Below, piece after piece: positions 3,452 to 29,539 of a stretch of 30,523 nt of DNA. Position numbers and translations under genes: made by a program. Within the stretch, counting starts at the first letter, position 1. The number at the start of each line of letters is the position of its first letter. Below the pieces are notes generated by a model. That model was not told the origin of the DNA, did not search any database, and worked only from the letters and a program-made list of their open reading frames with translations. The stretch is from a virus (taxonomy: Duplodnaviria > Heunggongvirae > Uroviricota > Caudoviricetes), in IMG/VR virus record IMGVR_UViG_2737471824_000004, positions 1-30,523 of that record. The stretch is one strand, 5' to 3'.

Positions 3452-3511
3452 ATGCGCCGTGATTGACTTCGGGGTGCTAATCCCGGCACCCGTTTTATGA
3501 GGTGCAGGTGA

Positions 3512-4716: not shown

Positions 4717-4738
4717 TATTAGCCTCGTTGGTTAGCTA

Positions 4739-4957: not shown

Positions 4958-4986
4958 ACTGATTCCTCGCGGTGCTGCTTCGCTTA

Positions 4987-9872: not shown

Positions 9873-10295
9873 ATGGCAAAAGTATTTACACAAGAAGAGC
9901 GGGAAAAAATTAAAGGGCAGGTGGTTGAACTCGTGCGCCAGAGCGGTCGTGAGACGTTACGGCAACTGGAAGCCAAGACAGGTGCGACAAGATATCTGAT
10001 GAGCGTTCTCGCCAGAGAGCTGGTTGCCAGTGGCGACGTATATAACTCCGGCTACGGGTTATTCCCGTCAGAACAGGCTCGTAAGGACTGGCAAAATGCC
10101 CGCAAAAAACTATCCAGGGCAAAGGTGAAGAAACCATCTGTGGTTGATCCTGACCTTATCTGGTCATTACCTGACGGAGAAATACGTCGCTACGACAGGA
10201 GTATGAACATAATCTGTCACGAGTGCCGGAAGAGTGAGGTTATGCAGCGAGTGCTGGCGTTTTATCAGGGTAATTATCAGGAGGTGATGCTGTGA
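9873..10295 (+). CDS. hypothetical protein (140 aa)
   Basis: ATG 9873 with GGAGG RBS (track M at 9858 is TTG). Confidence 0.5.
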   Translation: MAKVFTQEEREKIKGQVVELVRQSGRETLRQLEAKTGATRYLMSVLARELVASGDVYNSGYGLFPSEQARKDWQNARKKLSRAKVKKPSVVDPDLIWSLPDGEIRRYDRSMNIICHECRKSEVMQRVLAFYQGNYQEVML

Positions 10296-10765
10296 GTGCA
10301 CCGGCAACCATTCTTGATATGTGCTGCGGCAGCCGCATGTTCTGGTTTGATAAGAATGACGACCGGGCGATATTTAGCGATATCAGAAAGGAAGAGCACA
10401 CATTGTGTGATGGACGACGCCTGATTATCAGTCCTGATCTGATAGCTGATTTTCGTGCACTACCATTTGCAGACGCATCTTTTTCGATGGTTATATTCGA
10501 TCCTCCGCATCTTGAGCGTGTTGGTGATAACGCCTGGATGGGAAAGAAATATGGACGGCTGAATAAAGATACCTGGCGTGATGATTTGCGGCAGGGATTT
10601 AAAGAAGCCTTTCGTGTGTTGCGTCCATACGGCGTTCTGATTTTTAAATGGAATGAAACGCAAATACCTGTTCGCCAGATATTGGTGCTGACCGACAGAA
10701 AACCTGTTATCGGTCAACGAACAGGAAAAAACGATAAAACCCACTGGATTATTTTTATGAAATAG
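10292..10765 (+). CDS. putative small DNA methyltransferase (157 aa; motifs DMCCGS and FDPPH)
   Basis: GTG start after AGGAGGTGA, overlapping the upstream stop (GTGA); FxGxG-like motif I near the N-terminus and a DPPH motif resembling the (D/N)PP(Y/F/W/H) motif of amino-methyltransferases. Confidence 0.4.
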   Translation: MSAPATILDMCCGSRMFWFDKNDDRAIFSDIRKEEHTLCDGRRLIISPDLIADFRALPFADASFSMVIFDPPHLERVGDNAWMGKKYGRLNKDTWRDDLRQGFKEAFRVLRPYGVLIFKWNETQIPVRQILVLTDRKPVIGQRTGKNDKTHWIIFMK

Positions 10766-11261: not shown

Positions 11262-11617
11262 GCGAGATTAATTATCAGGAAGGGTATGAAACGGCGGGGC
11301 AAGCAAAACCAGTGGCATGGCGATATCGCTACGTGAAAAAAGGCGTTACGGACTTTCAGGAGAAGATGTGGGTTGGTGACTGGAAATATGTACCGACAAA
11401 AGAGGATTGTAACGACAGGCCGAACTATGAAATTCAGGCGTTATTCACTGCCCCGCCTGTGCCACTGACACCAGAAGGATTGATTAAAGCAGTGCGCTTC
11501 TATGAACAGGTTAAGCGTGAAAATCCGCCAGTCGAAACCGGAGCATGGAAAGACGCTGTTGACTGGGTGCTCAAAGAGGCTTGCCAGGCTGTAAACATTG
11601 GCATCAAAGGAGAGTGA
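11258..11617 (+). CDS. hypothetical protein (119 aa)
   Basis: ORF-track ORF; ends ...NIGIKGE, encoded by the 17-bp repeat that also ends the next gene. Confidence 0.45.
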   Translation: MSEINYQEGYETAGQAKPVAWRYRYVKKGVTDFQEKMWVGDWKYVPTKEDCNDRPNYEIQALFTAPPVPLTPEGLIKAVRFYEQVKRENPPVETGAWKDAVDWVLKEACQAVNIGIKGE

Positions 11618-11620
11618 GAG

Positions 11621-12111
11621 TGCAGATTTCACCGGTTACTCTTCGTGTTGCGAAGGCGTTTATATCCAGACATCACCGACACAATAAACCCCCGGTGGGG
11701 CATAAATTCAGCATTGGTCTGAGAAATGATGCCGGAGAATTGATAGGTGTGGCGACAGCCGGTCGACCTGTTGCACGACATTTGGATGATGGATTAACGC
11801 TTGAAGTAAATCGCACATGTACCACAGGAGAACGCAACGCTAACAGCGCGCTTTATGGTGCTGTCTGGCGGGCAGCAAAAGCTATGGGTTATCAACGTTG
11901 TATTACGTACACCCGGGCAGATGAATCAGGAGCATCTCTTCGCGCAGCTGGTTTTGTTCGTGTGAAAGAGCTTCCTCCAAGAAAAAGCTGGGCGGAATCA
12001 AGCGTCGCCCTGCGGAGTAAACGCGATCCAGTCGGAAACGGTGGTGTTCCTCGTGTGCTCTGGGAAATCAGGAGAATGAGTACCACTGGTATTCGCATCA
12101 AAGGAGAGTGA
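11621..12111 (+). CDS. hypothetical protein (163 aa), weak GNAT-acetyltransferase-like motifs
   Basis: GTG 11621 preceded by AGGAG inside the 17-bp repeat; segments ERNANSALYGAVWRAAKAMGYQRCITYT and SGASLRAAGF resemble GNAT motifs (weak). Confidence 0.4.
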
Positions 12112-13508: not shown

Positions 13509-14123
13509 ATGCAGAATTTATCTCAACAGTTGTTAGAAGCATATGACAAGGAGTGCCGCAAAGAGCTTTCGATCGCGTTAGCACAGGCTTATCTTCATTC
13601 GCATATGAAGGCAAAAGAGTTTGGTTCTTTTTGGGCTCAAGCACAGTCATATTTGCGCTGGTTTTATGCCGATGCATTGCTTGAGAATGCGGCTAAGCGT
13701 GTGGGGCTGGATTTTGAAGTCGGTAGCAATGCTGCTAAAAATTGTAAACACATTGCGATTCACTCGAACAACTGGAAAATGACGGCACATCATTTATCGG
13801 GTAATGCGCCACTTCCTAAGCAGGCATTGTATAGAGCTGTTTACGCTAATCAAAATTATGAATTGAATTTTGGGGATGAAAATGCCGACTCCCTGGATGG
13901 GAGAGCGTCTGGTGGACATGTTTATATGTTACATGATGGCAGTAATCAGCACTTGTCCAAACTGAATTTAACTGTTCCTTCTTCGGATAATTACGGGATT
14001 CTTTATACTGAGTCTTTACCAATTATGACGATGGTAGAAGTTGAAGCAGAAAATGTGGATTCTGAGATTGAAGATAAAATCAAGATTCTTACCGAACAAA
14101 TAATTAAATCACAGCAATCATGA
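13509..14123 (+). CDS. hypothetical protein (204 aa), first gene of a two-gene low-GC module
   Basis: ATG 13509 with AAGGA RBS; stop overlaps the downstream start (ATGA); two TGGTTGACA boxes upstream (13445..13452, 13477..13484). Confidence 0.55.
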   Translation: MQNLSQQLLEAYDKECRKELSIALAQAYLHSHMKAKEFGSFWAQAQSYLRWFYADALLENAAKRVGLDFEVGSNAAKNCKHIAIHSNNWKMTAHHLSGNAPLPKQALYRAVYANQNYELNFGDENADSLDGRASGGHVYMLHDGSNQHLSKLNLTVPSSDNYGILYTESLPIMTMVEVEAENVDSEIEDKIKILTEQIIKSQQS

Positions 14124-15265
14124 GCATGAATATCGCACAAACACCATTTACTGATAAATCGTTTAATCCTCGTCGCCTTGAGGAGGCAAGAGAGGCAAAA
14201 GGGTTGACGATGGCTGAACTTGCCAGAGTGCTCAATATTTCAAGACAAGCTATTTCGTCATTTGAGAAGGGGTTGAAGTCTCCCTCTGCTGATACACTTT
14301 CTGCAATAGCCAAGGTGTTAGGATTTCCAGAACGATTTTTCTTAGCCTCCAGTGCTTCTCCATCTCTGGAGGGGGCGATTCATTTTAGAAGTCGTTCAAC
14401 TGCGACCAAAAAGGCTCGAGTTACAGGGAAAACACGTGGGCGTTGGGCGGCATTAATATTGGATGAATGTCTAAAATATGCTCAATTACCAGATGTGGTT
14501 CTGCCTGAATTCGATATTATTGATTTTGAGGTTCTGTCTCTATCTGATATTGAGGATATGTCCACCCAATTAAGGCGTTTTTGGGGGTTAGGTGATGGTC
14601 CAATACTCAATTTAACTAGACTTGTTGAAAATAAAGGAATCGTGGTTTCTCATTTACCTTCTGGTGAGAAAGTTGATGCCTTTTCGTTCTGGCATAATGG
14701 GCGGCCTTTAATTATGTTAGATAGCTCGAAGACGGCTGTTCGCATGCGATTTAGTCTTGCTCATGAACTTGGCCATTTAATTATGCATAGGGCAGTGGAG
14801 GATGACTACCTGAATGATAAAGAATTATTCGACCTGGTGGAGTTGCAGGCCGATTATTTTGCCTCCAGCTTTTTAATGCCAGCCACGACTTTCGGGCGTG
14901 AATTTTATAGTCCAAATTTATCAGCGTTAGAACGATTAAAACTACGTTGGATTACATCTATCGGTAGTATTGCCATGAGGAGTCATAGCCTTAAGTTAAT
15001 CAGCGATAATCAGAAAAGCTATATATTTAAGCAATTAGCGCCATTCCATCGTAGGGAGCCGTTAGATGATGCAATCCCAAAAGAAGAGCCTGAGTTACTT
15101 AATAAGTTACTTTTACTTCTTGATAAGCATTCAATCATAAAGGTAACTGAGTTAACTGATATCTTTGCTCTTCCCTTAAATGAGTTATCTGCAATTACAC
15201 GATTTAAAGAATCAGATATGATTCATTCTGACAATGTTATTTCATTTACCATAAAACAAAAATAA
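14120..15265 (+). CDS. XRE-family HTH fused to ImmA/IrrE-type zinc metallopeptidase (COG2856-like), 381 aa with C-terminal extension
   Basis: HTH LTMAELARVLNISRQAISSFEKG; HEXXH motif LAHELGHLIMH. Confidence 0.75.
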   Translation: MSMNIAQTPFTDKSFNPRRLEEAREAKGLTMAELARVLNISRQAISSFEKGLKSPSADTLSAIAKVLGFPERFFLASSASPSLEGAIHFRSRSTATKKARVTGKTRGRWAALILDECLKYAQLPDVVLPEFDIIDFEVLSLSDIEDMSTQLRRFWGLGDGPILNLTRLVENKGIVVSHLPSGEKVDAFSFWHNGRPLIMLDSSKTAVRMRFSLAHELGHLIMHRAVEDDYLNDKELFDLVELQADYFASSFLMPATTFGREFYSPNLSALERLKLRWITSIGSIAMRSHSLKLISDNQKSYIFKQLAPFHRREPLDDAIPKEEPELLNKLLLLLDKHSIIKVTELTDIFALPLNELSAITRFKESDMIHSDNVISFTIKQK

Positions 15266-15651: not shown

Positions 15652-16710
15652 GTGCGGGTATTACTTCGACCTGTTCTGGTACCGGAACTCGGGCTGGTGA
15701 TCGTTAAGCCGGGCCGTGAATCCATGCCGGTATTCCACAATACCCGGGTATTGGTGGAGCCGGAACCGAAAAGCATGCGTAATCTGCCGTCCGGGGTCGT
15801 TCCTGCCGTTCGCCAGCCGCTGGTGGAAGACAAAACATTGCTGCCGTTTTTCAGTAACGCACGGGTGATTCGTGCTGCTGGTGGTGCTGGTGCATTGTCT
15901 GACTGGCTGTTGCGCCATATTAAATCCTGCCAGTGGCCACACGGCGATTATCATCACAGCGAAACCGTCATTCACCGTTATGGTACCGGCGCAATGGTGT
16001 TGTGCTGGCACTGCGACAACCAGCTGCGTGACCAGACATCCGAATCACTCGAGCAACTTGCTCATCAAAACCTGTCAGCATGGATGATTGACGTCATCGG
16101 TCACGCAATAAGCGGTACGCAGGAGCGTGAATTATCTCTGGCTGAATTATCTTGGTGGGCGGTCCGCAATCAGGTGGCGGACGCGCTACCGGAAGCGGTA
16201 TTACGTCGTTCGCTGGGGTTGCGTGCGGAAAAAATCCGCTCAATGTACCGTGAAAGCGACATCGTACCGGGAGAGCAGACCGCCACCAGCATACTGAAAC
16301 AGCGCACAAAAAATCTTGCGCCGCTGCCTCACGCCCACCAGCAACAGAACCCGCCACAGGAAAAGACGGTGGTCAGCATTGCTGTTGATCCGGAGTCACC
16401 GGCTCAGTATCTCCAGCGCCAGAAACCACAACGGGAAGAGATGCCTGTATACACGCGCTGGGTAAAAACGCAGAAATGCATGACGTGCGGTAATCAGGCA
16501 GATGATCCGCATCACATCATTGGTCATGGACTGGGAGGGATGGGAACAAAGGCTGATGATTTGTTCGTTATTCCGCTGTGCCGTAAATGCCATAACGAAC
16601 TACACGCCGGGGTAAAAGATTTTGAAGAAAAACACGGCAGCCAGCTGTTGTTGCTGATTCGTTTTTTAATGCACGCGAAAAATTCGGGCGTCCTGAAGTG
16701 GAAATCATAA
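15652..16710 (+). CDS. DUF968-family prophage protein (YdfU-like, 352 aa) with C-terminal Cys/His-rich HNH-like motif
   Basis: GTG start after GGAGG; C-terminal CMTCG...HHIIGH...CRKCHNELH; position before rusA and Q matches Qin ydfU. Confidence 0.6.
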   Translation: MRVLLRPVLVPELGLVIVKPGRESMPVFHNTRVLVEPEPKSMRNLPSGVVPAVRQPLVEDKTLLPFFSNARVIRAAGGAGALSDWLLRHIKSCQWPHGDYHHSETVIHRYGTGAMVLCWHCDNQLRDQTSESLEQLAHQNLSAWMIDVIGHAISGTQERELSLAELSWWAVRNQVADALPEAVLRRSLGLRAEKIRSMYRESDIVPGEQTATSILKQRTKNLAPLPHAHQQQNPPQEKTVVSIAVDPESPAQYLQRQKPQREEMPVYTRWVKTQKCMTCGNQADDPHHIIGHGLGGMGTKADDLFVIPLCRKCHNELHAGVKDFEEKHGSQLLLLIRFLMHAKNSGVLKWKS

Positions 16711-17088
16711 ATGACTGAACGCATAGAATTTGTTTTGCCTTACCCGCCGACGGTGAATACTTACTGGCGACGTCGCGGCAGCACATATTTTGTATCAAAA
16801 GCCGGTGAGCGTTATCGCCGAGATGTGGCGCTTATTGTTCGCCATCAGCAACTGAAATTAAACCTCTCCGGAAGGCTGGCGATAAAGATTATTGCAGAGC
16901 CACCGGATAAGCGCCGTCGTGACCTGGACAATATCCTGAAAGCACCGCTGGATGCACTAACGCATGCGGGACTGCTTATCGATGACGAGCAGTTTGATGA
17001 AATCAATATTGTGCGCGGACTGCCTGTTCCTGGTGGGCGGTTGGGCGTGAAGATTTACGAAATTACAGGTGATAACGATGGTGCGTGA
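16711..17088 (+). CDS. rusA: RusA Holliday-junction resolvase (125 aa)
   Basis: [15 protein letters not shown]...[27 protein letters not shown] matches RusA hallmarks. Confidence 0.8.
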
Positions 17089-17464
17089 TATTCAGCAGGT
17101 TATGGAGCGGTGGGGAGCATGGGCTGCGAACAATCACGAAGATGTGTCATGGGCGTCAATCGCTGCTGGTTTTAAAGGATTAATCCCGCCGAAAGTGAAA
17201 TCACGCCCTCAGTGTTCTGATGATGATGCAATGATAATTTGTGGCTGTATGGCCCGGTTGAACAAGAAAAATCAGGATTTGCACGATTTGTTGGTGGATT
17301 ATTACGTAGGTGGAATGACTTTTATGGGGTTGGCACGAAAGCATGGGTGTTCGGATACCTGTATTGGCAAGCGCCTGCAGAAAGCGGAAGGGGTTATTGA
17401 TGGCATGTTGATGATGCTTGATATCCGACTGGAGATGGACAGATACGTAGAACGAATCATGTAG
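17078..17464 (+). CDS. late antiterminator Q (Q21/QuuD-like, 128 aa)
   Basis: [23 protein letters not shown]...[10 protein letters not shown]... resembles DLP12 QuuD as recalled; ATG 17078 with AGGTGA RBS; overlaps the rusA end. Confidence 0.75.
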
Positions 17465-17468
17465 GAGC

Positions 17469-17497
17469 TTGACCAGACACATTGTCCGGGGCTATAT
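17469..17497 (+). promoter_or_regulatory. pR'-like promoter directly after Q (-35 TTGACC, 17-nt spacer, -10 CTATAT/TATATT)
   Basis: Hexamers at 17469..17474 and 17492..17499; homologous to the promoter at 3512..3540. Confidence 0.4.
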
Positions 17498-17560
17498 TCC
17501 TCACGCGTCAGCAAAATCTGGCGTCGGGATTAGGAACCCCGGATAGAGACCGCGACAGAT

Positions 17561-17583
17561 ACACGCCGCGAGCGTGTTTTTTA
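17561..17583 (+). terminator. tR'-like intrinsic terminator (ACACGC-CGCGA-GCGTGT plus T6)
   Basis: Direct reading; about 70 nt downstream of the pR'-like promoter. Confidence 0.5.
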
Positions 17584-17745
17584 TTGTCGTATGCACGCGC
17601 ACATCTGAATTATGGTGGGGCGTATGGGGGAGCTGAAAGGCTCGCCGGTTGGTTTCCCGGTAGTTCCTAACCCTGTACGTCTCACCACCCGATGATTAGG
17701 AACCTGACGGTGGTGATAGTTTAGAAACCACTAGAGGGCGTCATT

Positions 17746-18309
17746 ATGACAACTCAAATCTCTGTTGAAACTCTCTCCCCGATCACCCATAACCAGATTC
17801 CTGTTATTACCACTGAACTTTTGGCGCAGCTTTATGGCACCGAAATTCTGAATATCCAGGTTAACTTCACCAGAAACAAAGAGCGTTTTGTCGCAGGAAA
17901 GCACTTTTTTAAAGCAGCGGGTGAGGAATTAAAAAAATTGCGACTTACTTTAAGTAAGTCACAAAATCCCATCTCTCCCAAAACCCGCTTCCTCATCCTA
18001 TGGACAGAACGCGGAGCTGCCCGCCACGCAAAAATGCTGGAAACAGATCAGGCGTGGGAAGTATTCGAAAAACTGGAAGACTGTTATTTCAGCCAGAAAC
18101 AGCCACCAGCAACACAAAACTCCCCCACCGAAAATGATGGATGCGCATTACTGATCCACTTCGATAAACACGGTCAGGTCGACTTCACGGAAAAAGTACC
18201 CGCCGATGCGATGGTATGCACTCTGGAACGGTTCAAATTTTATCTGGAACAACGCGGCTGGATCGTTGCCAGTAAAGAGCAACTGGTGGAACGACTGATG
18301 CGACTTTAA
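17746..18309 (+). CDS. ORF6N/KilA-N-type antirepressor-like protein with the same C-terminal domain as the Rha protein (187 aa)
   Basis: N-terminal ITTELLAQLYGTE...NKERFVAGKHFF...LWTERGAARHAKML resembles the ORF6N domain; C-terminus LLIHFDKHGQVDFTEKVPADAMVCTLERFKFYLEQRGW parallels the Rha C-terminus; RBS GAGGG. Confidence 0.65.
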   Translation: MTTQISVETLSPITHNQIPVITTELLAQLYGTEILNIQVNFTRNKERFVAGKHFFKAAGEELKKLRLTLSKSQNPISPKTRFLILWTERGAARHAKMLETDQAWEVFEKLEDCYFSQKQPPATQNSPTENDGCALLIHFDKHGQVDFTEKVPADAMVCTLERFKFYLEQRGWIVASKEQLVERLMRL

Positions 18310-18385
18310 AAATTTTCCCCGAACACTTTACGATCGTAAAAAGTTGAATATCCTGTTAAGAGTGGTTACTACGCCACACAGCTTA

Positions 18386-18410
18386 AACCCGCCGATGAGC
18401 GGGTTTTTTT
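18386..18410 (+). terminator. intrinsic terminator (AACCCGC-CGATGA-GCGGGTT plus T7)
   Basis: Direct reading. Confidence 0.6.
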
Positions 18411-18533
18411 GTGCCTGAAAAGCAGTACAGGACGTTAAATGCGCTGGTGGTTGCGAATACCGGCCTTTCAACTTGCTGGCTTTTTCGACAAGAGTTATTG
18501 GTATGTCACGTTAACCAGAAAAGGGAAAAAGAC

Positions 18534-18731
18534 ATGCTAAAACAGCAGGATATGAGCGAAACCGCCAGAGTGGTGTTTAATGAATTAAGCGTCACCGAAC
18601 CAGCGACCGTCGGGGAGATTGCGCAGAATACTTACCTTTCACGCGAATGCTGCCAGTTAATACTGACCCAGCTTGTTATGGCGGGCCTGGCAGATTATCA
18701 GTTCGGTTGTTACAGACGCCTTCCGCAGTGA
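18534..18731 (+). CDS. hypothetical small protein (65 aa)
   Basis: In-frame ATG at 18534 with purine-rich RBS; the track start at 18411 is GTG and overlaps the terminator. Confidence 0.4.
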   Translation: MLKQQDMSETARVVFNELSVTEPATVGEIAQNTYLSRECCQLILTQLVMAGLADYQFGCYRRLPQ

Positions 18732-18881
18732 AGGCTTTTTAATTTGTGGTAATGGGCGGCTGGTGGGTGTTAGCGGCACCTGCCAGCCATCTGCTCATGC
18801 GTTGGGGTCACAAGCAAACCTCAGGCCCATCTGCTTTGCGCAAAAGCGGTATGAGCCTATCAGAGAAGCGCTTATTGATCT

Positions 18882-19943
18882 ATGGCTAATACTGTAAAAA
18901 TATCCAGTTGTGAGTTAATCAACGCTGATTGCCTGGAATTTATCCAGACCTTACCGGAAAACTCTGTCGATCTGATAGTCACAGACCCACCATACTTTAA
19001 AGTGAAGCCAGATGGCTGGGATAACCAGTGGAAGGGCGATGATGATTACCTGAAATGGCTGGATCAGTGTCTGGCGCAGTTCTGGCGGGTGTTAAAACCT
19101 GCCGGAAGCCTTTACCTGTTCTGCGGTCATCGTCTGGCATCTGATATCGAAATCATGATGCGTGAACGCTTTAATGTGCTGAACCACATTATCTGGGCGA
19201 AGCCGTCCGGACGTTGGAATGGGTGTAATAAAGAAAGTCTGCGCGCATATTTTCCTGCCACAGAGCGCGTTCTGTTTGCTGAACATTACCAGGGGCCATA
19301 TCGCGGCAAAAGTGACGGCTATGCAGCAAAAGAAAGGAAACTCAAACAGCACATAATGGCACCGCTGATATCGTATTTCAGGGATGCTCGTGCCGAACTG
19401 GGTATAACGGCAAAACAAATTGCCGAAGCCACAGGTAAGAAAAATATGGTTTCCCACTGGTTTGGTGCCAGTCAGTGGCAGTTGCCGAATGAGGCTGACT
19501 ACCGGAAGTTACAGGCACTGTTTTCCCGTATAGCGGCAGAGAAGTTTCAGGAACAACAACTGGAACAACCACACCACCAGTTGGTGGCATCTTATGATTC
19601 ACTGAATCGCAAATATTCTGAATTGCTGGATGAGTTTAAATCTCTCCGGCGCTGGTTCTCCGTATCAGTCTCCGTGCCTTATACCGATGTCTGGATGCAT
19701 AAACCCGTTCAGTTCTACCCGGGCAAACATCCGTGTGAGAAACCGGCGGATATGCTCAGGCAAATAATCAATGCCAGTAGTCGACCTGGCGATCTGGTTG
19801 CTGATTTCTTTATGGGATCCGGTTCCACAATAAAAGCAGCAATGGCGCTGGGGCGTCGGGCATTAGGTGTTGAGCTTGAGACAGAACGGTTCAATAAGAC
19901 CATTCAGGAAATCAGTATGTTATCAGCAAATACAATTTTGTGA
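18882..19943 (+). CDS. DNA methyltransferase, N6-adenine/N4-cytosine family (beta class; 353 aa)
   Basis: Motif IV DPPY (IVTDPPYF) before motif I FxGSGS (FFMGSGSTIKAA); no adjacent restriction gene. Confidence 0.8.
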   Translation: MANTVKISSCELINADCLEFIQTLPENSVDLIVTDPPYFKVKPDGWDNQWKGDDDYLKWLDQCLAQFWRVLKPAGSLYLFCGHRLASDIEIMMRERFNVLNHIIWAKPSGRWNGCNKESLRAYFPATERVLFAEHYQGPYRGKSDGYAAKERKLKQHIMAPLISYFRDARAELGITAKQIAEATGKKNMVSHWFGASQWQLPNEADYRKLQALFSRIAAEKFQEQQLEQPHHQLVASYDSLNRKYSELLDEFKSLRRWFSVSVSVPYTDVWMHKPVQFYPGKHPCEKPADMLRQIINASSRPGDLVADFFMGSGSTIKAAMALGRRALGVELETERFNKTIQEISMLSANTIL

Positions 19944-20184
19944 ATTAACTCAATTATTAGTGGGACATCTGTTACGTATAATCCGTAACAACACGGTGCA
20001 TCCTGCAATGTAGCAGGGCTGATGTGGTATGATGTAATAAGGATTTTCATCATTTTCATGAGCATCAAAAGTTAAAGGGAGCGAGCCACGGTTGACCACG
20101 CCAAAGGCTCATCGGTAAAAATCCGACACCGTGTCTTCTTAACTCACTTATTGTTTCCACCCATGTTTTTGGATACCTGCTGTA

Positions 20185-20221
20185 GCTGTCAGATTAGCGC
20201 GATAATCTGACAGCTTTTTTT
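20185..20221 (+). terminator. strong intrinsic terminator (12-bp stem GCTGTCAGATTA/TAATCTGACAGC plus T7)
   Basis: Direct reading. Confidence 0.6.
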
Positions 20222-20513
20222 ACAACGAATCCTTCTGATCTGCTTTTGCGGGGCTTTTTTGTATCCGCTCCATGCCCGGCGTATAAGCGGAGGTTGGTCA
20301 GTTTTCTAAAAATTGAAATACCTCACAATTCAGCCAGTTAATGGTTGTTTGTCTGGCGAAGAGTTTGTAAATAAAAAAACGCATGGTGAATCCCCCTAAG
20401 CGGCGGGGCGAATCAGCAGTCAGTTCTGGGATAATCGCGGGTTTGTATGCTGATGCCGGACTCACCGGGAGGCACCCGGCACCATGCATCATGGTCATCC
20501 CCTTGTATGATAC

Positions 20514-20568
20514 CCCTCTCCGGAGGGGTATTTTTTGGATAAAAAAGCCCGCGCTGGGAGGCACGGGC
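20514..20568. terminator. back-to-back terminator-like hairpins (plus: CCCCTC-TCCG-GAGGGG plus T6 at 20514..20537; minus: hairpin 20547..20568 with T6 on the minus strand)
   Basis: Direct reading. Confidence 0.4.
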
Positions 20569-20969
20569 GGCAAGGAATAAAACGTGAAGAAATTTTCACA
20601 GGCGCATAATAATCCGATGTTGCCAGATTTTGCAACTGCAGCATCTGGTTATTATGTGAGCTGGAAAATCAGATTCTGTATGGACTGAAGCCATGCTGTT
20701 ATTTAGGGCCAAAGAGCTGGCTTTTTCCCGCCTTCTCTCCAGTAACGATTAATGAGAAAAGAATGAAATGCTTTTCCTGGGGAGGAGGGCAGTAGAAAAA
20801 AGAACCCGCCAGCAAAAATATGGGGGATGAACAGCTTTTGCTACTCAGGTTGCTGGCGGGTATGGTTCTTCATGAAATAAGAATGTTACGCTGTATTTTT
20901 AATGAAAATGATAATCATTGTCAATTGGTTGTGCGTATTTTTTCATACATGACTGGTAAAGGTGATTCA

Positions 20970-21000
20970 GGCCATCAGAGTTTTGCTGATGGCCTTTTTT
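20970..21000 (+). terminator. intrinsic terminator immediately upstream of the holin (GGCCATCAG-AGTTTTG-CTGATGGCC plus T6)
   Basis: Direct reading. Confidence 0.55.
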
Positions 21001-21033
21001 CTTTCCGGTAGCACAGGTCTGTCGGGGCGGGAT

Positions 21034-21249
21034 ATGTATCAGATGGAAAAAATATCAACAGGCATTGCCTACGGCGCCTCCGCAGGCAGTGCTGGCTACT
21101 GGTTTTTACAATGGCTTGATCAGGTTAGTCCGTCTCAGTGGGCTGCGATTGGTGTGCTGGGGAGCCTGTTCCTGGGTTTTCTGACTTATCTGACGAATCT
21201 GTACTTCAAGATAAAAGAGGACCGTCGCAAGGCGGCGCGGGGAGAGTAA
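21034..21249 (+). CDS. class II pinholin, S21-like (71 aa) with dual-start motif MYQM
   Basis: [38 protein letters not shown]...[13 protein letters not shown] matches phage 21 S as recalled; ATGs at 21034 and 21043. Confidence 0.8.
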
Positions 21250-21253
21250 TTCA

Positions 21254-21805
21254 ATGATTAAAAGCTATGAGTTGATTGTGAAAGGAACCCGCAATTTTGA
21301 GAATAAAGTCTCGGTAATTGTAGCCTTACAGGATAAAGAACGTTTTGCCGGTGAAATTGTTGATCTGAATATCAGCATGGATCGTGTTGAAGGGGCAACG
21401 CTGGAGTTTTACGAGACAGAGGCAATCAAACAGGCAAAGATATTGTTCCGGGATATTGCTGCCGGGTTATGTGAAGGGAACGAACCGTTGCCGGGAAAGC
21501 GCCCCATAATTTTAGAGGCGCAGAATGTGTGGATAACCTACAGAGGAAAACTACCGGGAAGAATTACTGGTTCTCTGAAGACGCCACCTACGGCATTGTG
21601 GTCAGAAAAAGATGATATTGAATCGCTCATTGAAAAACTGGAGGGCAGCGTCGCTGATCTGAATAAAAAATTGTCGGTGCTGATTCCTTCTGAAGATGAA
21701 AAAAAACACCGCGATGAGCAGTTTGCGGCGTTTTACGATTATTGCATTGAAGTTACTCGCAGGAATTTTGTGAAGATTTTTGAGGAGGGTAAATCTCTTC
21801 AGTAA
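21254..21805 (+). CDS. hypothetical protein (183 aa) inserted between holin and endolysin; low GC
   Basis: ATG 21254 preceded by GGAGAG inside the holin 3' end; no recognisable family. Confidence 0.55.
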   Translation: MIKSYELIVKGTRNFENKVSVIVALQDKERFAGEIVDLNISMDRVEGATLEFYETEAIKQAKILFRDIAAGLCEGNEPLPGKRPIILEAQNVWITYRGKLPGRITGSLKTPPTALWSEKDDIESLIEKLEGSVADLNKKLSVLIPSEDEKKHRDEQFAAFYDYCIEVTRRNFVKIFEEGKSLQ

Positions 21806-22013
21806 GCTTAATGGCGGACGCTGCAATTAATTCAGGAAGGTCCACAAGGTCATCTGTCAGTGAATATGATGAAAAATCGGCGGCAGTTCTGTTAAGAAGC
21901 GCTTTAACTAATTCCTTTTCCTTCTCTGGCAACAAGTTGATTAGAGCTACGACTGCTTGCCTGAGTGCGATTAAATCAGCAAAAGTTTGTTTTGGTAGAT
22001 TTGTGTAATCCAT
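21753..22013 (-). CDS. hypothetical protein (86 aa), convergent with and overlapping 21254..21805
   Basis: ATG 22013 (MDYTNLPKQTF...) with GAGGTG RBS; 3' ends of the two genes overlap by about 53 nt. Confidence 0.45.
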   Translation of the reverse strand: MDYTNLPKQTFADLIALRQAVVALINLLPEKEKELVKALLNRTAADFSSYSLTDDLVDLPELIAASAIKLTEEIYPPQKSSQNSCE

Positions 22014-22126
22014 AGTCACCTCTGTGTTTATCAGATTGACATCCTCCTCCCGCCAGTGCCCATCACTGGCGAGGTAAGATTTAACATATCCGGGGATTTG
22101 AAGCCGATAAATCCTGATAAATACCC

Positions 22127-22660
22127 ATGAACGTAAAAATCAGATACAGCCTGTCGGCTGCTGTTCTGGCACTGATTGCCGCCAGTGCTCCTGCCCCTGA
22201 CATTCTCGATCAGTTTCTGGATGAAAAAGAGGGGAATCACACCACTGCATACCTCGATGGCTCCGGCATCTGGACCATCTGTCGGGGTGCCACGATGGTG
22301 GATGGAAAACCCGTTTTTCCCGGTATGAAACTGTCGAAGGAAAAATGCGACCAGGTTAACGCCATTGAACGTGATAAGGCGCTGGCATGGGTGGAACGTA
22401 ATATTAAAGTACCACTGACCGAACCCCAGAAAGCGGGTATCGCGTCATTTTGCCCCTATAACATTGGCCCCGGTAAGTGTTTCCCGTCAACGTTTTATAA
22501 GCGGCTTAATGCAGGTGATCGTAAAGGTGCCTGCGAGGCGATTCGCTGGTGGATTAAGGACAGGGGGCACGATTGCCGCATTCGTTCAAATAACTGTTAT
22601 GGTCAGGTTATTCGTCGTGACCAGGAAAGCGCATTAGCCTGTTGGGGGATAGAGCAGTGA
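22127..22660 (+). CDS. SAR endolysin (R21-type lysozyme, 177 aa)
   Basis: N-terminal signal-arrest-release segment ([16 protein letters not shown]) and E...D...T triad region [20 protein letters not shown]. Confidence 0.85.
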
Positions 22661-23121
22661 GAAGAGTAATCGCGATTATTTATGCTCTGGTTATCTGCAT
22701 CATCGTCTGCCTGTCATGGGCTGTTAATCATTACCGTGATAATGCCATTACCTATAAAGCCCAGCGCGATAAAAATGCCAGAGAACTGAAGCTGGCAAAC
22801 TCGACAATTACTGATATGCAGGTGCGCCAGCGTGATGTTGCTGTGCTCGATGCAAAATACACGAAGGAGTTAGCTGATGCGAAAGCTGAAAATGATGCTC
22901 TGCGTGATGATGTTGCCGCTGGTCGTCGTCGGTTGCGCATCAAAGCAGTCTGTCAGTCAGTGCGTGAAGCCACCACCGCCTCCGGCATGGATAATGCAGT
23001 CTCCCCCAGACTGGCAGACGTCGCTGAACGGGATTATTTTACCCTCAGAGAACGAGTGATGGTGATGCAGAAACAACTGGAAGGAGCGCAAGAATATATC
23101 CGTACTCAATGTCTGAAATAA
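22657..23121 (+). CDS. Rz i-spanin (154 aa)
   Basis: GTG 22657 overlapping the endolysin stop; N-terminal TM then coiled-coil ([18 protein letters not shown]...). Confidence 0.75.
22877..23059 (+). CDS. Rz1 o-spanin lipoprotein embedded in +1 frame within Rz (60 aa)
   Basis: AAGGAG RBS 7 nt upstream; lipobox LPLVVVGC; proline-rich. Confidence 0.7.
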
Positions 23122-23897: not shown

Positions 23898-24446
23898 ATG
23901 AACGTCAATAAGAAAAAACTGGCCGATATTTTTGGCGTTGATGTCAGGACCATCACCGCCTGGCAGAGTCAGGGGTTACCACTAGTTTCTGGTGGAGGGA
24001 AAGGGACTGAATCAGTTTTTGATACAACTGCTGCCATTCAGTGGTATGCGCAGAGGGAAGCTGATATCGAAAATGAAAAGCTCCGGAAAGAGCTGGAAGA
24101 TTTGCGGGCGGCTGCAGAATCAGACTTACAACCGGGCACCATTGACTATGAGCGCTACCGGCTCACAAAAGCGCAGGCAGATGCGCAGGAACTGAAAAAT
24201 GCCCGTGAAGAAGGAATGGTTCTGGAAACTGAATTGTTTACCTTCATTCTGCAACGTGTGGCACAGGAAATTTCGGGGATACTTGTGCGTGTGCCATTGA
24301 CGTTACAGCGTAAATATCCAGACATTTCACCATCACATCTTGATGTGGTGAAAACTGAAATCGCGAAAGCCTCCAATGTTGCAGCTAAAGCCGGTAAAAA
24401 CGTGGGCGGGTGGATCGATGATTTCAGACGCACAGAAGGCAGCTAA
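23898..24446 (+). CDS. terminase small subunit Nu1 (182 aa)
   Basis: [23 protein letters not shown]...GGGKG closely resembles lambda gpNu1. Confidence 0.8.
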
Positions 24447-26346
24447 TGCAGCCGGTGCGATAGCTACAGGGCTTTTATCTCTCAATATTCCGGTTCCACT
24501 GACAACAGTTCAGTGGGCTGATCAACATTATTATCTGCCGAAAGAATCTTCATATACTCCCGGAAAATGGGAAACACTGCCGTTTCAGGTTGCCATTATG
24601 AACAGCATGGGAAATGACCGGATCCGCACCATTAATCTGATTAAATCGGCGCGCGTCGGTTATACCAAAATGCTGTTAGGGGTGGAGGCCTATTTTATTG
24701 AGCATAAATCCCGTAACAGTCTGCTTTTTCAGCCAACAGATTCTGCCGCCGAGGATTTCATGAAATCTCATGTCGAGCCAACAATAAGGGATGTTCCTGC
24801 ATTGTTGGATCTGGCTCCATGGTTCGGAAGAAAACACCGCGATAATACGCTCACCCTGAAGCGTTTTTCCTCCGGCGTGGGGCTCTGGTGTCTGGGGGGC
24901 GCGGCAGCAAAAAATTACCGTGAAAAATCTGTGGATGTGGTCTGTTATGACGAACTCTCCTCGTTTGAACCGGATGTGGAAAAAGAAGGTTCGCCAACAC
25001 TGCTTGGCGATAAACGTATTGAAGGTTCGGTATGGCCTAAATCCATACGCGGCTCGACGCCCAAAACCAAAGGCACCTGCCAGATCGAAAAAGCCGCTAA
25101 CGAGTCGGCGCATTTCATGCGGTTTTATGTTCCTTGTCCTCATTGTGGGGAGATCCAGTATCTGAAGTTTGGTGATGAATCCACGCCGTTTGGCCTGAAA
25201 TGGGAGAAGGGTAAACCGGAAACGGTGTATTACCTGTGTGAGCATAATGGCTGTGTGATCCGTCAGTCGGAACTTGACCAGACTGACGGGCGCTGGATTT
25301 GTGACAATACAGGAATGTGGACACGTGACGGCCTGGCATTTTACAGCGCGGGTGATGAGGAGATGCCGCCACCGCGATCCATCACTTTCCACATCTGGAC
25401 GGCCTATAGCCCGTTTACCACCTGGGTACAGATTGTCTATGACTGGCTGGATGCACTGAAAGATCCCAACGGCCTGAAAACCTTTGTGAACACCACGCTG
25501 GGCGAGACCTGGGAAGAGGCCGTGGGCGAAAAACTCGATCACCAGGTTCTGATGGATAAGGTCGTGCATTACACGGCGGCGGTACCTGACAGGGTGGTTT
25601 ATCTGACGGCGGGCATTGACTCGCAGCGAAACCGTTTTGAGATGTATGTCTGGGGATGGGCTCCGGGAGAGGAAGCCTTTCTGGTGGATAAAATCATCAT
25701 TATGGGGCGTCCTGATGAGGAAGAGACGCTGTTACGTGTGGATGCGGCGATCAACAAAAAATACCGCCATGCGGATGGCACCGAAATGACCATTTCCCGT
25801 GTCTGCTGGGACATAGGGGGGATCGATGGTGAAATTGTTTATCAGAGATCAAAAAAACACGGTGTTTTCCGGGTGCTGCCGGTAAAAGGCGCATCTGTCT
25901 ATGGCAAGCCGGTGATCACCATGCCAAAAACCCGCAATCAGCGGGGCGTGTATCTGTGTGAAGTGGGGACGGACACCGCAAAAGAAATTCTCTATGCCCG
26001 TATGAAAGCCGATCCCACGCCTGCGGATGAAGCCACGTCGTATGCCATCCGTTTTCCTGATGATCCGGAGATTTTTTCGCAGACAGAGGCGCAGCAACTG
26101 GTTGCGGAAGAGCTTGTGGAGAAGTGGGAAAAAGGAAAGATGCGTCTGCTGTGGGATAACAAAAAGCGGCGTAACGAAGCGCTGGACTGCCTGGTGTATG
26201 CCTACGCGGCATTACGTGTGTCCGTGCAGCGCTGGCAGCTCGATCTGGCTGTACTGGCAAAATCCCGGGAAGAAGAGACGACCCGGCCAACCCTTAAAGA
26301 ACTGGCAGCGAAGCTGTCCGGAGGAGTGAATGGTTACAGTCGCTGA
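24418..26346 (+). CDS. terminase large subunit A (642 aa)
   Basis: Extensive similarity to lambda gpA ([12 protein letters not shown]..., [33 protein letters not shown]); start overlaps the Nu1 end. Confidence 0.9.
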
Positions 26347-26536
26347 ATTGCAGGCGCTGCGTCAGGCGCGCCTTGATTTATTAACCGGTAAACGGGTGGT
26401 GTCTGTCCAGAAAGATGGTCGCAGAATTGAATATACGGCGGCTTCTCTGGATGAGCTTAACCGGGCGATCAATGATGCGGAGTCGGTACTGGGGACAACC
26501 CGACGTCGCCGTCGTCCGCTGGGAGTGAGGTTATGA
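26330..26536 (+). CDS. head-tail joining protein W (68 aa)
   Basis: LTGKRVVSVQKDGRRIEYTAASL resembles lambda gpW; GGAGG RBS. Confidence 0.75.
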   Translation: MVTVAELQALRQARLDLLTGKRVVSVQKDGRRIEYTAASLDELNRAINDAESVLGTTRRRRRPLGVRL

Positions 26537-27480
26537 AACTAACGCCTGTCCTGATTGATGTGAACGGCGTTCCGCTTCGTGAGAGTCTCAGCTACAACGG
26601 GGGCGGCGCAGGATTTGGCGGGCAAATGGCGGAGTGGTTGCCACCGGCGCAGAGTGCCGATGCGGCCCTGCTGCCCGCGTTGCGTCTGGGGAATGCCCGG
26701 GCAGATGATCTGGTGCGCAATAACGGAATAGCGGCTAATGCGGTGGCCCTGCATAAAGATCACATTGTCGGGCATATGTTTCTGATCAGCTACCGTCCGA
26801 ACTGGCGCTGGCTGGGGATGCGGGAGACTGCAGCCAAAAGCTTTGTCGATGAGGTGGAGGCGGCCTGGTCGGAATACGCCGAAGGGATGTTTGGCGAGAT
26901 CGACGTGGAAGGAAAACGCACCTTCACGGAATTTATCCGTGAAGGTGTGGGCGTTCATGCGTTTAACGGCGAAATATTTGTGCAGCCGGTCTGGGATACG
27001 GAAACCACGCAGTTATTCCGTACGCGTTTTAAAGCCGTGAGTCCGAAACGGGTGGACACGCCAGGACACGGTATGGGGAACCGTTTTCTGCGGGCCGGTG
27101 TGGAGGTCGATCGATATGGCCGTGCCGTTGCGTACCACATCTGTGAGGATGATTTTCCGTTCTCTGGTAGTGGAGGATGGGAACGGATCCCGCGTGAACT
27201 TCCCACCGGGCGTCCGGCCATGCTGCATATTTTCGAGCCGGTGGAGGACGGGCAGACCCGTGGGGCTAATCAGTTTTACAGCGTCATGGAGCGGCTGAAG
27301 ATGCTCGATTCCCTGCAGGTAACACAGCTTCAGTCGGCCATTGTGAAGGCCATGTATCCGCACCTGATACCAGCCGTCGCTCAGTTTCTGGCGAAACGCA
27401 GGGAGCTGTGTGGCCAGCGCCCGGATGGCTTCTGCCCCCGTTTTCACACGCAGGTCGATGCGGCGGCCAAATCGTTGTAA
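26533..27480 (+). pseudogene. portal protein B, 3'-truncated (homology ends near 27360)
   Basis: N-terminal about 276 aa resemble lambda gpB through ...SAIVKAMY; the following 39 codons are antisense to the I fragment; lambda B is far longer as recalled. Confidence 0.7.
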
Positions 27481-27546
27481 ATCCCCGTAAAGGCAGATGC
27501 GTGCCATGCCCGGTGACGCCAGACGGAGTGTGTGCGTCGCTGCCAT
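27357..27546 (-). pseudogene. tail assembly protein I, N-terminal fragment (about 64 codons), inverted
   Basis: MAATHTLRLASPGMARICLYGDLQRFGRRIDLRVKTGAEAIRALATQLPAFRQKLSDGWYQVRI resembles the lambda gpI N-terminus; homology stops at the junction with the portal remnant. Confidence 0.6.
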
Positions 27547-28187
27547 TTGTCGGTGTACCTCTCTCGTTTGCTCAGTTGTTCAGGAATATGGTGCAGCAGC
27601 TCGCCGTCACCACAGTAAATGGCGGCATGATTGGCAACAGGCGAGCCAAAACAACACAGCAGCACGTCGCCTGCCTGTGCCTCATGCGGTGAGACCCGGT
27701 AAAAACCCTGTGTTTCAAGGTTATCCAGATAGAGATTCTGACCGTGACACCACCAGTCATCCTCACGATGAAAATCAGGCAGCTCAATCCCCGCCAGATG
27801 GTACGCATCCCGGAACAGCGTGTAACAGTCCGTCACCCCGTGCTCAAAGCGCCGCCCGGTGAGATGCGGCACACAGCGGAACTTATGAATCGCCCCCCGG
27901 CAGACCAGCAACCACGGCAAATCACTCTGCACCTGCAGCCGCCGGTCAGCCTCACTCAGCCAGGGCAGACCACCGGGGTGGCTGTGGACCAGCGCCACAA
28001 TCTCACCCTGCATTTCTGCCTGCAGCCAGTCCTCCGGAGCCATCCGGAAATAATCCTCCGGCTCACCGGAAATATTCACGCAGGGAAAATATCTTTCCCC
28101 CACCGGCGTTCTCACCACGAAGCCGCACGACTCCGCTGGCGCACATCGCCGGGCGTGCGCCAGAATCGCTGATTCTGTCTCTGTCAT
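27444..28187 (-). CDS. tail tip assembly protein K-like (MPN/JAB plus NlpC/P60 domains, 247 aa)
   Basis: MTETESAILAHARRCAPAESCGFVV...HSHP...GVTDCYTLFRDAYHLAGIELPD resembles lambda gpK; apparently intact. Confidence 0.75.
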   Translation of the reverse strand: MTETESAILAHARRCAPAESCGFVVRTPVGERYFPCVNISGEPEDYFRMAPEDWLQAEMQGEIVALVHSHPGGLPWLSEADRRLQVQSDLPWLLVCRGAIHKFRCVPHLTGRRFEHGVTDCYTLFRDAYHLAGIELPDFHREDDWWCHGQNLYLDNLETQGFYRVSPHEAQAGDVLLCCFGSPVANHAAIYCGDGELLHHIPEQLSKRERYTDKWQRRTHSVWRHRAWHASAFTGIYNDLAAASTCV

Positions 28188-28192
28188 GGGAT

Positions 28193-28819
28193 TTACTGCG
28201 AAAGTTTGTTAATGGAAAGGTAGCCGCCAAAGTTACCGATGTTATTGCGAAACTTACAGCCGCTCAGGCATTTGCTGCATTTATCTTTCGTGATATCGGA
28301 CGTTGGCTGGTCATATTCATCCGCGACCGCCGGACCGTGATAACCGCACTCATCACCGCGATAGGTCCAGGTGCAGGTGTTGGCCAGCATGATGCGCCCC
28401 GGAAAAACGGCGCCATCCGTTTCCGTCGGTGTGGCCAGCACAAAGGAGGCACTCACCGCGCTCAGTTCGCTGCACTGCTCGATGCGCCAGCGGCTGACCA
28501 CCTCCTGCTCCGGGTCGGCGTCACTGTTTCCGTTGAAGAAGTTCACCGCATCCAGAAAACGGGCGTAAACCTTACGTCGGACCACCGTTCCGCCAACCAG
28601 ACTCTGCCAATCCTCCACCATCCCGGTGACCAGACCATACAGATTGGACACGCTCAGCACTGGTCTGGCGCTGGCCCCTTTGCCATTCAGTTCAAAACCG
28701 CTCCCCTGAATGGGGTATGCCTGATACTGCCGCCCCTGCCAGGTGACCGGTTCACCTTTTTCGTTCTGCTCATTACAGAAAAAATAACGTTCACCACCGA
28801 CCTCTGTCAGGTCGATTTC
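28193..28819 (-). pseudogene. minor tail protein L, 5'-truncated
   Basis: Homology to lambda gpL begins at ...EIDLTEVGGERYFFCNEQNEKGEPVTWQGRQYQ; the upstream in-frame stretch in the track ORF is antisense to a tail-fibre fragment. Confidence 0.7.
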
Positions 28820-28855
28820 CTGACGGCGCAGTGATACACCTGGTTCCTCGGACAG

Positions 28856-29539
28856 GTGCAGCAACTGGTCAGCCGGGCGGAAGACAGTGCCACGACAGCA
28901 GGTGAACATGAGCAGGGGGCACTGAAGGCACTGGAGGAAGCCAGGGAGATTGCAAAAACGCCAGGACCACAGGGAGAGCCGGGACCGCAGGGAGAAAAAG
29001 GTGAGAAAGGCGATAAAGGTGATACCGGTGCCCGGGGAGCCACCGGCCCTCAGGGGCCTCAGGGACCCATGGGTCCCAGCGGAGTTTACCCGGAAGACGG
29101 GATAAAGACTGCGAAAAAATTCACGGGCATTCTGGCTCATGGTTTTATGTATTCTGACCTTCAGTTTCCGTTGCTGAAATATAACCACTACCTTGCCTGT
29201 GAAGACCACCCCGTTCCGGGGGCCGTGGGGAATTATGCATATGGTCTGATGTGGCAGGTTCCGACGAATGAGAATGTTTCAGGTCAGATTTTCCTTAACT
29301 GTATGGGACAGGCATTCATCAGGGCTTACAGCGGACTGGGTACCACTCCGTGGTGGCAGTTCGCCGGTCGTCCGGTAGCCGGTGGAGTGGGGAGTTACCT
29401 GTTCTGTGCTTCTCAGGATGCGGTCAGTTACGGAGATGAACTGGCCGGAGAGCGGCTTGACCCGGTACAGTCAGGAATCTGGATGGCCTGCGGAAATGCA
29501 GAAGCTGAAGAGAAAATGCTTTTTCTGAGGGTGAAATAA
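28856..29539 (+). pseudogene. side tail-fibre C-terminal fragment with collagen-like Gly-X-Y repeats
   Basis: PGPQGEPGPQGEKGEKGDKGDTGARGATGPQGPQGPMGP then a tail-fibre C-terminal region; no credible start or N-terminal portion; abuts the inverted L remnant. Confidence 0.5.

Follow-up and report, generated by a model that had tools for sequence, protein, structure and literature searches.

A 30,523-nucleotide stretch of caudoviral DNA (IMG/VR record IMGVR_UViG_2737471824_000004; hereafter the window) carries, at 18882–19943 on the plus strand, a gene for an orphan DNA methyltransferase of the M.EcoGII family. The gene is linked to two further elements: a structured RNA leader of about 130 nucleotides which ends at its start codon (18750–18881, +) and, upstream of the leader, a gene for a winged-helix protein of 65 residues (18534–18731, +). 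We consider it probable, at roughly 70%, that the enzyme applies blanket N6-adenine methylation to progeny DNA late in the phage cycle as a protection against restriction, and that its expression has to pass a second gate. In outline, RNA polymerase modified by the antiterminator Q would read through several terminators after induction, and the methylase would be made only then. Replicated phage DNA would be heavily methylated ahead of packaging, and the progeny DNA would resist many of the restriction enzymes that N6-methyladenine blocks. The second gate would consist of the folded leader at a start codon without a normally spaced Shine–Dalgarno sequence, with the winged-helix gene upstream; it is proposed because the enzyme harms the host chromosome.

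The open reading frame (ORF) is intact, begins with ATG and spans exactly 18882–19943 (353 codons). Its product matches Pfam PF01555 (N6_N4_Mtase) over residues 29–338 (E 2.4e-42; 145.8 bits against a gathering score of 26.7) and the Type II methyltransferase model of PADLOC (MTase_II PDLC03265, E 5e-153). The catalytic, adenine-binding motif IV, DPPY, occupies residues 35–38 (18984–18995, +) and is unchanged across the ten family members aligned. Motif I (FxGxG), which binds S-adenosylmethionine (SAM), reads FMGSG within FFMGSGST at residues 310–314 (19809–19823, +) and aligns with motif I of the solved beta-class methyltransferases 8urk, RsrI, CcrM and MboIIA. Motif IV near the N-terminus, a central target recognition domain (TRD) and motif I near the C-terminus is the order by which the beta class is defined. 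The product is a beta-class, SAM-dependent amino-methyltransferase, with catalysis predicted from its sequence, and the original prediction of a beta-class DPPY enzyme at this locus is confirmed. Searches of Pfam and NCBIfam gave no match of the Dam type (alpha-class, GATC), in which the motif order is the reverse. Solved structures cover only the two ends of the protein, which form the beta-class catalytic core (8urk, RsrI, CcrM, MboIIA and DpnA), whereas residues ~116–279, TRD included, have no relative among them. The TRD-equivalent region (residues 160–237; 19359–19592, +) takes its limits from PMC11551740, where M.EcoGII is described as a Rossmann core (residues 1–134 and 260–349) with a TRD (160–237) that forms a four-helix bundle with a helix-turn-helix.

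Sequence specificity is best approached through M.EcoGII itself. The window enzyme is identical to it at 287 of 348 positions, or ~82% over the full length, with no real gaps and with the TRD included. The reference was a machine-read copy from the supplement of PMC11551740 with a few evident misreads, and this figure is approximate; a clean comparison gives 83% identity to the protein of phage 1720a-02. By region, and with the same reservation, 127 of 134 positions are shared in the N-terminal core, 60 of 78 in the TRD and 18 of 25 in the linker. Agreement with the reconstructed ancestor Anc291 reaches 86% overall and 67 of 78 in the TRD, again without gaps, while identity to SUPREM is 68%. 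The TRD of the mEp460 methylase is the same as that of the window at all 78 positions. Two predicted dimer-interface segments (residues 97–110 and 116–140), said in PMC11551740 to be invariant among M.EcoGII and the ancestors, are kept except for N98, where the ancestors also have N, and I130V. At position 103 the window enzyme and the 1720a-02 protein have I, and the H in the M.EcoGII copy was taken for a misread.

M.EcoGII, from a prophage of E. coli O104:H4, is non-specific on DNA, and phage 1720a-02 and other enterobacterial phages carry a very similar enzyme (Murray et al., PMC5778455). According to PMC11551740, M.EcoGII, Anc291 and SUPREM are all active on DNA and RNA, and no methylation motif was found on RNA for any of them; non-specificity on DNA is established for M.EcoGII only, and for Anc291 and SUPREM the finding on DNA is one of activity. 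Given its identity of 82% to M.EcoGII and of 86% to an ancestor that was assayed, in essentially gap-free alignments, the window enzyme most likely methylates adenines largely or wholly irrespective of sequence context. Its gene is no novelty: it is already known, and the family is very common. Its annotation should read M.EcoGII-family (probably non-specific) adenine methyltransferase instead of generic orphan methylase.

Close relatives are indeed abundant. At the DNA level the gene is 92–93% identical to annotated DNA methylase genes of mEp460, cdtI, SfV and others, and ~81% identical to those of Stx2 phages, phiP27 and 1720a-02. Protein identity to annotated phage methylases is 82–94%, with mEp460 (mEp460_053) and cdtI at 94% and SfV (orf48) at 93–94%. 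Leader and methylase together give megablast-level matches in 2689 of 5426 complete E. coli genomes, in up to seven copies per genome, where the gene carries the plain label ‘DNA-methyltransferase’. IMG/VR holds at least 594 relatives of the methylase, one of which (L004, probably the source contig itself) is 100% identical along with its neighbours, and 217 were found in GTDB, sampled at one genome per species, in many genera of the Enterobacterales. More distant homologs, N15 gp52, phiKO2 gp52, PY54 ORF60 and VpaM_MAR gp58, retain 49–62% identity over the full length.

The enzyme is an orphan, as originally predicted. No restriction-endonuclease family was found among the more than 40 window ORFs tested with Pfam and PADLOC; the nuclease-type families present are RusA, a DUF968/HNH protein and the terminase only. 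The neighbours of the methylase are the winged-helix ORF, an antirepressor gene, small RNA matches and the holin gene, and the adjacency that marks a Type II restriction–modification system is absent. Related loci whose gene content was inspected, including those of mEp460, 1720a-02, E. coli R1, N15-like and Vibrio phages, likewise contain no endonuclease partner. The accompanying claim that the window carries two candidate methylases also holds. The second, at 10292–10765 (+; 157 residues), matches PADLOC MTase_II (7e-73) and PHROG 954 ‘DNA methyltransferase’ (3e-86). It shows DMCCGS followed by DPPH, has sub-threshold matches in Pfam and has no relative among solved structures. A further ORF at 11581–12111 (+; 176 residues) scores 203 bits with NCBIfam XF1762 (cutoff 50) and matches PHROG 1384 ‘Mom-like DNA modification protein’. 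It is possibly a third DNA-modification gene of the prophage.

The gene order bears on the timing of expression. The methylase lies between the gene for Q (17069–17464, +; Pfam PF06530, E 2.5e-52) and the lysis cassette (20962–23121, +; Pfam), as had been stated, and adjoins neither. The sole promoter-like site between Q and the methylase, detected by a promoter scan, follows Q directly (17469–17498, +). It is succeeded by a short isrK-like RNA (17505–17582, +; Rfam isrK, 66.9 bits against a gathering score of 50) and the terminator of this RNA (17561–17577, +; terminator scan), an arrangement with the layout of lambda pR′/tR′. The site would thus be a Q-dependent late promoter and the hairpin the first terminator. 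The terminator scan places two more terminator-like hairpins before the methylase, for a total of three: one behind the ORF6N antirepressor gene (18385–18406, +) and one with a T run just 5′ of the leader, which overlaps the stop codon of the winged-helix gene (18718–18735, +). The records of N15 and phiKO2 annotate the equivalent hairpin in front of the leader and methylase as a terminator behind a promoter, termed ‘putative late promoter’ in phiKO2. Over 17300–21300, 18 terminator-like sites were counted against 4.5 ± 2.3 in shuffled sequence, an excess of about fourfold. Because the gene lies behind Q in a terminator-rich region with one promoter and its terminator, we infer that it is transcribed by Q-modified polymerase after induction.

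The same position recurs elsewhere. In every relative with gene content inspected, the methylase is on the late strand near lysis genes. In mEp460, 1720a-02 and E. coli R1 it is found between Q and the holin gene. N15, phiKO2, PY54, a Morganella phage and two Vibrio phages have it as the gene immediately preceding the holin or lysis genes, and in the P2-like Aeromonas phage phiO18P it is flanked by the holin and muramidase genes. This late location, kept across lambdoid, N15-like, P2-like and Vibrio phages, fits a role in protection from restriction. Methylation by M.EcoGI and M.EcoGII is undetectable in the lysogen, constitutive expression causes slow and unstable growth, and the authors who characterised M.EcoGII propose that it protects phage DNA against restriction (PMC5778455). 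Expression restricted to the late phase agrees with both the silence of these enzymes in the lysogen and their growth cost. Of the two roles put forward in the original prediction, protection from host restriction is accordingly the likelier, given the proposal of the M.EcoGII authors and the conserved late position. A change of host gene expression in lysogens, the other proposal, finds little room behind Q, a promoter–terminator unit and two more hairpins, in front of a start codon without normally spaced Shine–Dalgarno sequence, and in a family whose type member is silent in the lysogen.

Several considerations weigh against late blanket methylation as a protection of progeny. The designation of the isrK promoter as a Q-dependent late promoter is made by analogy with lambda pR′/tR′. 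In Gifsy-1, where the same arrangement of Q, isrK and antirepressor has been dissected, the lysogen transcribes from the isrK promoter and some of this transcription passes the terminator (PMC4825925); by analogy, low-level transcription toward the methylase in the lysogen is conceivable. Blanket N6-methyladenine would also sensitise DNA to methyl-dependent restriction, which makes the net benefit dependent on the host. Finally, the prophage looks rearranged or defective, with a truncated portal gene and an inverted tail gene, and the methylase may never be used for phage production in its present host.

The TRD raises a further objection, as 18 of its 78 positions (and 7 of 25 in the linker) differ from M.EcoGII, and some sequence preference is conceivable. 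A site-specific orphan methyltransferase would have the same fold and family but a defined motif, and would protect only from particular restriction systems. Relatives of reduced specificity exist, namely M.HaeV (BA) and M.CsaII (AB), both cited in PMC5778455. The assayed enzymes at 82%, 86% and 68% identity (M.EcoGII, Anc291 and SUPREM), however, show no methylation motif on RNA (PMC11551740), and the alignments have no insertion or deletion that could add a reading head. We regard site specificity as unlikely. More doubtful still is an enzyme whose main substrate is RNA or single-stranded DNA and whose late methylation of transcripts or of replication and packaging intermediates would tune the life cycle instead of evading restriction. 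Two observations could be taken in its favour, the conserved structured leader on the enzyme's own mRNA and the annotation of the VpaM_MAR relative as similar to ORF17 of phage VHML. We take ORF17 to be the VHML adenine methyltransferase for which Bochow et al. 2012 reportedly proposed a role as ‘life-cycle regulator’ (cited in PMC7919010). M.EcoGII does methylate RNA, single-stranded DNA and DNA:RNA hybrids (PMC5778455). Yet its RNA activity is 12-fold lower than that of the engineered variant Anc284/SUPREM, and the residue said to favour RNA activity, E at position 179, is Q in the window enzyme as in M.EcoGII (both points from PMC11551740). In the literature searched, moreover, no phage phenotype is tied to RNA methylation.

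An epigenetic role in lysogenic conversion, with the enzyme made in the lysogen and host gene expression changed as a result, appears marginally less probable again. An orphan phage methyltransferase of an S. aureus prophage reportedly changes the host phenotype, which counts in favour of such a role, as do the lysogen activity and the leakage described for Gifsy-1. These are set against the three terminator-like hairpins before the gene, the absence of a Shine–Dalgarno sequence at normal spacing and a conserved neighbour that is the lysis cassette. The precedents of M.EcoGI and M.EcoGII, with no methylation in the lysogen and with a deleterious effect of constitutive expression (PMC5778455), also speak against it. 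It is least credible of all that the gene is the modification half of a restriction–modification system, with an endonuclease beyond the ends of the window or among its unannotated small ORFs. Several small ORFs in 1–5000 do match no family, and the window stops at 30.5 kb. In the relatives inspected, though, the flanks vary while the upstream neighbour is always the winged-helix gene or a promoter–terminator unit and the downstream neighbour always lysis genes, stx or small RNA inserts; larger sets of loci were scanned for the window's own flanking genes only. Besides, a sequence-specific endonuclease could not, in the usual sense, be paired with a non-specific methylase.

The leader is more conserved than the genes that flank it. 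Its anchors, TGGGCG...GCCCA, stand at a fixed distance of 126–132 nucleotides from the ATG in 151 of 177 loci. An alignment with MAFFT followed by RNAalifold misaligned the variable stems and recovered only the invariant helix P1 (UGGGC:GCCCA). For this reason a five-helix structure (P1–P5, with alternative pairings seg1:seg2 and seg3:seg4) was written by hand for 24 seed sequences from Enterobacterales, from which a covariance model was built and the sequences realigned. The model also matches leaders from outside the seed, namely those of N15, PhiR46_1, phiKO2, PY54, two Vibrio phages and a Chania genome. There is one match per locus, always on the coding strand and directly 5′ of the methylase, or in Val-yong3 directly 5′ of a 38-residue ORF that precedes it.

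In an alignment of 67 distinct sequences fitted to the model, both partners vary in 26 of 36 pairs. Shuffled controls gave 12.6 ± 1.5 such pairs (none of 500 reached the observed value) and slid partners 7–12. Similarly, 84.8% of the alignment cells are able to pair, against 29–45% with slid partners. Since the alignment was fitted to the model, single-sequence folds and raw sequences were checked independently. Minimum-energy folds of single sequences contain P2 in all 67 leaders and P4 in 63, each formed by 22 different arm sequences, and compensatory changes in the stems are also seen in the raw sequences. A coding function was rejected, as length differences are not multiples of three and the stem changes are compensatory. 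An element acting at the DNA level is less likely, and because many pairs are G–U on the plus strand only, the leader is considered to act as RNA in the sense direction.

Two alternative pairings are conserved besides the helices. The invariant 5′ (A)UGGGC pairs either with the invariant GCCCA (P1) or with GCUCAU, and the conserved (G)UGAGCC offers another partner for GGCCCA. Pair compatibility of these alternative helices is 95% (22–53% in slid controls), and they include one covarying pair (GC 52, AU 7, GU 5); in the leader of Mixta, P1 is kept by a compensatory UGAGC/GCUCA. Minimum-energy folds adopt the alternative pairing in 51 of the 67 leaders and P1 in 11. The start codon itself, as in the window gene, typically has no Shine–Dalgarno sequence at normal spacing: a core at −16 to −5 occurs in only 8 of 65 leaders, and the median duplex energy with the anti-Shine–Dalgarno sequence is +0.5 kcal/mol. 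A purine-rich, Shine–Dalgarno-like core lies further upstream at −36 to −23 in 59 of 65 leaders, and the P5 hairpin stands between this core and the AUG. In our reading the leader is an RNA that acts in cis, has two conserved conformations and is predicted to limit or time the translation of an enzyme that is harmful to the host.

The pairing of leader and methylase is tight. The leader pattern searched as DNA gives at least 120 matches in IMG/VR, and among the 120 matches listed 117 have the methylase downstream within 60 nucleotides. Two of the other three lie at contig ends, and the third is fused to a remnant of the methylase: on contig L199 (2096–2458) the leader is joined to the last ~80 methylase codons by an internal deletion. 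No significant match to the model was found in loci of Photorhabdus and Xenorhabdus, and neither two Erwiniaceae loci nor phiO18P contains a leader. Prophages of Photorhabdus and Xenorhabdus (L152–L180) have a shorter leader, ~90 nucleotides before the methylase, and keep the winged-helix gene. By eye, this leader comprises only the 5′ part (GUGAAAUGG..., P2) and no GCCCA/P4 half, and represents a natural minimal variant. In Val-yong3 (L098, 1832–1948) the ORF of 38 residues between leader and methylase encodes a CxxC...CxxC zinc ribbon, and this is the sole phage with such an ORF at that place.

Rfam 15 returned nothing at E ≤ 1 for 17300–21300 of the window, with chance-level miRNA and CRISPR matches (E > 4) in 18700–18900, and nothing at E ≤ 0.1 for ten related loci. 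The literature searched likewise held no relevant account of the leader sequence, of RNA motifs near N6_N4_Mtase genes or of a methylase in the Stx pR′ region. Judged by these searches, the leader has no Rfam family or published description, the winged-helix gene also appears undescribed, and both are possibly new.

In 82 of 84 viral loci the winged-helix ORF is found ~350 nucleotides before the start of the methylase gene. Its sequence falls into two allelic types with ~50% mutual identity, against 94% for the methylase. The ORF is also found before the methylase in Klebsiella, Buttiauxella and Salmonella prophages with other families of Q and holin. Homologs carry names such as TrmB-family or DprA-like winged-helix proteins at NCBI, and N15 gp51, phiKO2 gp51 and PY54 ORF59 are homologous proteins encoded at the same position (hhalign probability 92%, E 6e-7). 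The best of five AlphaFold2 models is a canonical winged helix with a mean confidence (pLDDT) of 92.7, and the other four score 55–64. A Foldseek search with this model gave generic winged-helix matches only (E ≥ 1e-3). The protein is a candidate partner of the leader.

We tentatively suggest that leader and winged-helix protein form an as yet undescribed post-transcriptional switch which gates translation of a toxic, non-specific methyltransferase, a proposal whose odds we place somewhat below even. Two mutually exclusive folds, P1 with P3 or seg1:seg2 with seg3:seg4, would be in balance. One of them would bury the purine-rich Shine–Dalgarno-like segment ~25–35 nucleotides before a start codon that otherwise lacks a ribosome-binding site. 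The balance would be shifted by a factor, for which the winged-helix protein and the methylase itself are candidates, as are small molecules (SAM or S-adenosylhomocysteine, for instance). Other options for the leader include autoregulation by the methylase (the enzyme binds RNA), a small-molecule riboswitch or an element that modifies the polymerase. The com–mom operon of phage Mu offers a likeness in control logic: its toxic late enzyme Mom, which modifies adenines in DNA, is controlled through the small protein Com, encoded immediately before it, and through a structure in the mRNA where the modification gene begins. Mom is not known to be a methyltransferase, and Com is a zinc finger, not a winged helix. 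By resemblance only, one may speak of a com–mom-like control cassette which extends from lambdoid to N15-like and Vibrio phages and to about half of E. coli genomes. The zinc-ribbon ORF of Val-yong3 was considered as a Com-like protein and set aside, the match being weak (Pfam E 0.28).

If leader and winged-helix protein do control translation, this would account for the tolerance of cells to an enzyme that methylates all adenines. The cassette would then be a compact, testable case of RNA-based gating of a toxic phage enzyme and would supply annotation pipelines with a new RNA family. It is the only part that merits experimental follow-up; the methylase alone adds little, since the type member of its family is a commercial enzyme. 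More broadly, prophages with such methylases can release DNA that is protected against many restriction systems, which is relevant to the host range of phages and to horizontal transfer within the Enterobacterales, Stx phages included.

The surroundings are those of a lambdoid prophage from the immunity and replication region through to the head genes. Repressor and Cro-like genes with YdaS/YdaT-like ORFs (6054–7352) are followed by an O-like initiator (7291–8310), a DnaC-like loader (8317–9057), a nin-type region, the DUF968/HNH protein (15652–16710) and RusA (16711–17088). An ORF for a ParE-family toxin lies beside the immunity region (5545–5832, −; Pfam E 8e-16). Within the nin region, 13509–15265 (+) gives a two-gene match to the RosmerTA defence system of PADLOC, in which an ORF with weak similarity to RmrT (E 7.5e-10) comes before RmrA (helix-turn-helix and M78 peptidase, E 5e-102). 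Behind Q, the isrK-like RNA is accompanied by c4-a1b1 targets (17492–17545, +; Rfam, just under the gathering score), a C4-type antisense RNA match (17608–17692, +) and the ORF6N antirepressor gene (17746–18309, +). The segment 17469–18309 joins the antQ–isrK–anrP layout of Gifsy-1 to a C4/ant module of the P1 type. The excess of terminator-like sites in this part of the genome fits a region which needs antitermination and is full of small inserted modules.

Downstream of the methylase, a stretch of ~1 kb is free of ORFs and is an insert absent from most relatives. It contains a weak (19956–20174, +; 29.3 bits) and a strong (20352–20540, +; 113.9 bits) match to the small RNA STnc100, each with a terminator-like hairpin behind it. 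The lysis cassette comprises a P21-type holin (20962–21249), DUF1327/YdfR (21254–21805), lysozyme (22127–22660) and Rz (22642–23121), all identified with Pfam. The DUF1327/YdfR ORF has 183 residues, of which the family profile spans the first 112 only, and an ORF of 88 residues runs antisense to its end (21254–22019); PGAP calls the equivalent in E. coli R1 partial. The terminase genes Nu1/gpA (23898–26346) and a portal fragment follow. Across 26533–29209 the lambda-type portal ORF ends at 315 residues and a tail protein L gene comes next on the opposite strand, with a G+C content that rises to 0.57–0.59.

Compared with known systems, the nearest phage loci share the setting of the window gene and vary in what follows it. 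In mEp460, cdtI, SfV, phiP27, 1720a-02 and Stx2 phages the methylase likewise lies between Q and the lysis genes or stx. In most close relatives the holin gene starts ~45 nucleotides past the methylase stop, whereas the window has the insert of ~1 kb with STnc100-type matches, and in the 1720a-02 record stx occupies this slot. In Stx phages, tRNA genes presumably also occupy it; no tRNA gene was found in the window. N15, phiKO2 and PY54, which are linear-plasmid prophages, and VpaM_MAR carry the methylase directly before holin and lysin genes and behind the same structured leader, although the phage backbone is another one and, in the N15-like and Vibrio relatives, the stem sequences are entirely different while the structure is kept. 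The N15 group shares the homologous small winged-helix gene upstream but, unlike the window, has a promoter–terminator unit between this gene and the leader.

M.EcoGII (from the C227-11 prophage; GenBank EGT69837.1) is of the same length class, 349 against 353 residues, is also prophage-borne and has the same beta-class order of motifs. The two enzymes differ at the TRD and linker positions counted above and in the C-terminal six residues, and the published work on M.EcoGII mentions neither an upstream leader nor a winged-helix gene. The Dam enzymes of T4 and P1 are likewise orphan, phage-encoded N6-adenine methyltransferases with an anti-restriction rationale. They belong, however, to the alpha class, with motif I before motif IV and GATC as target, whereas the window methylase has motif IV before motif I and falls into PF01555.

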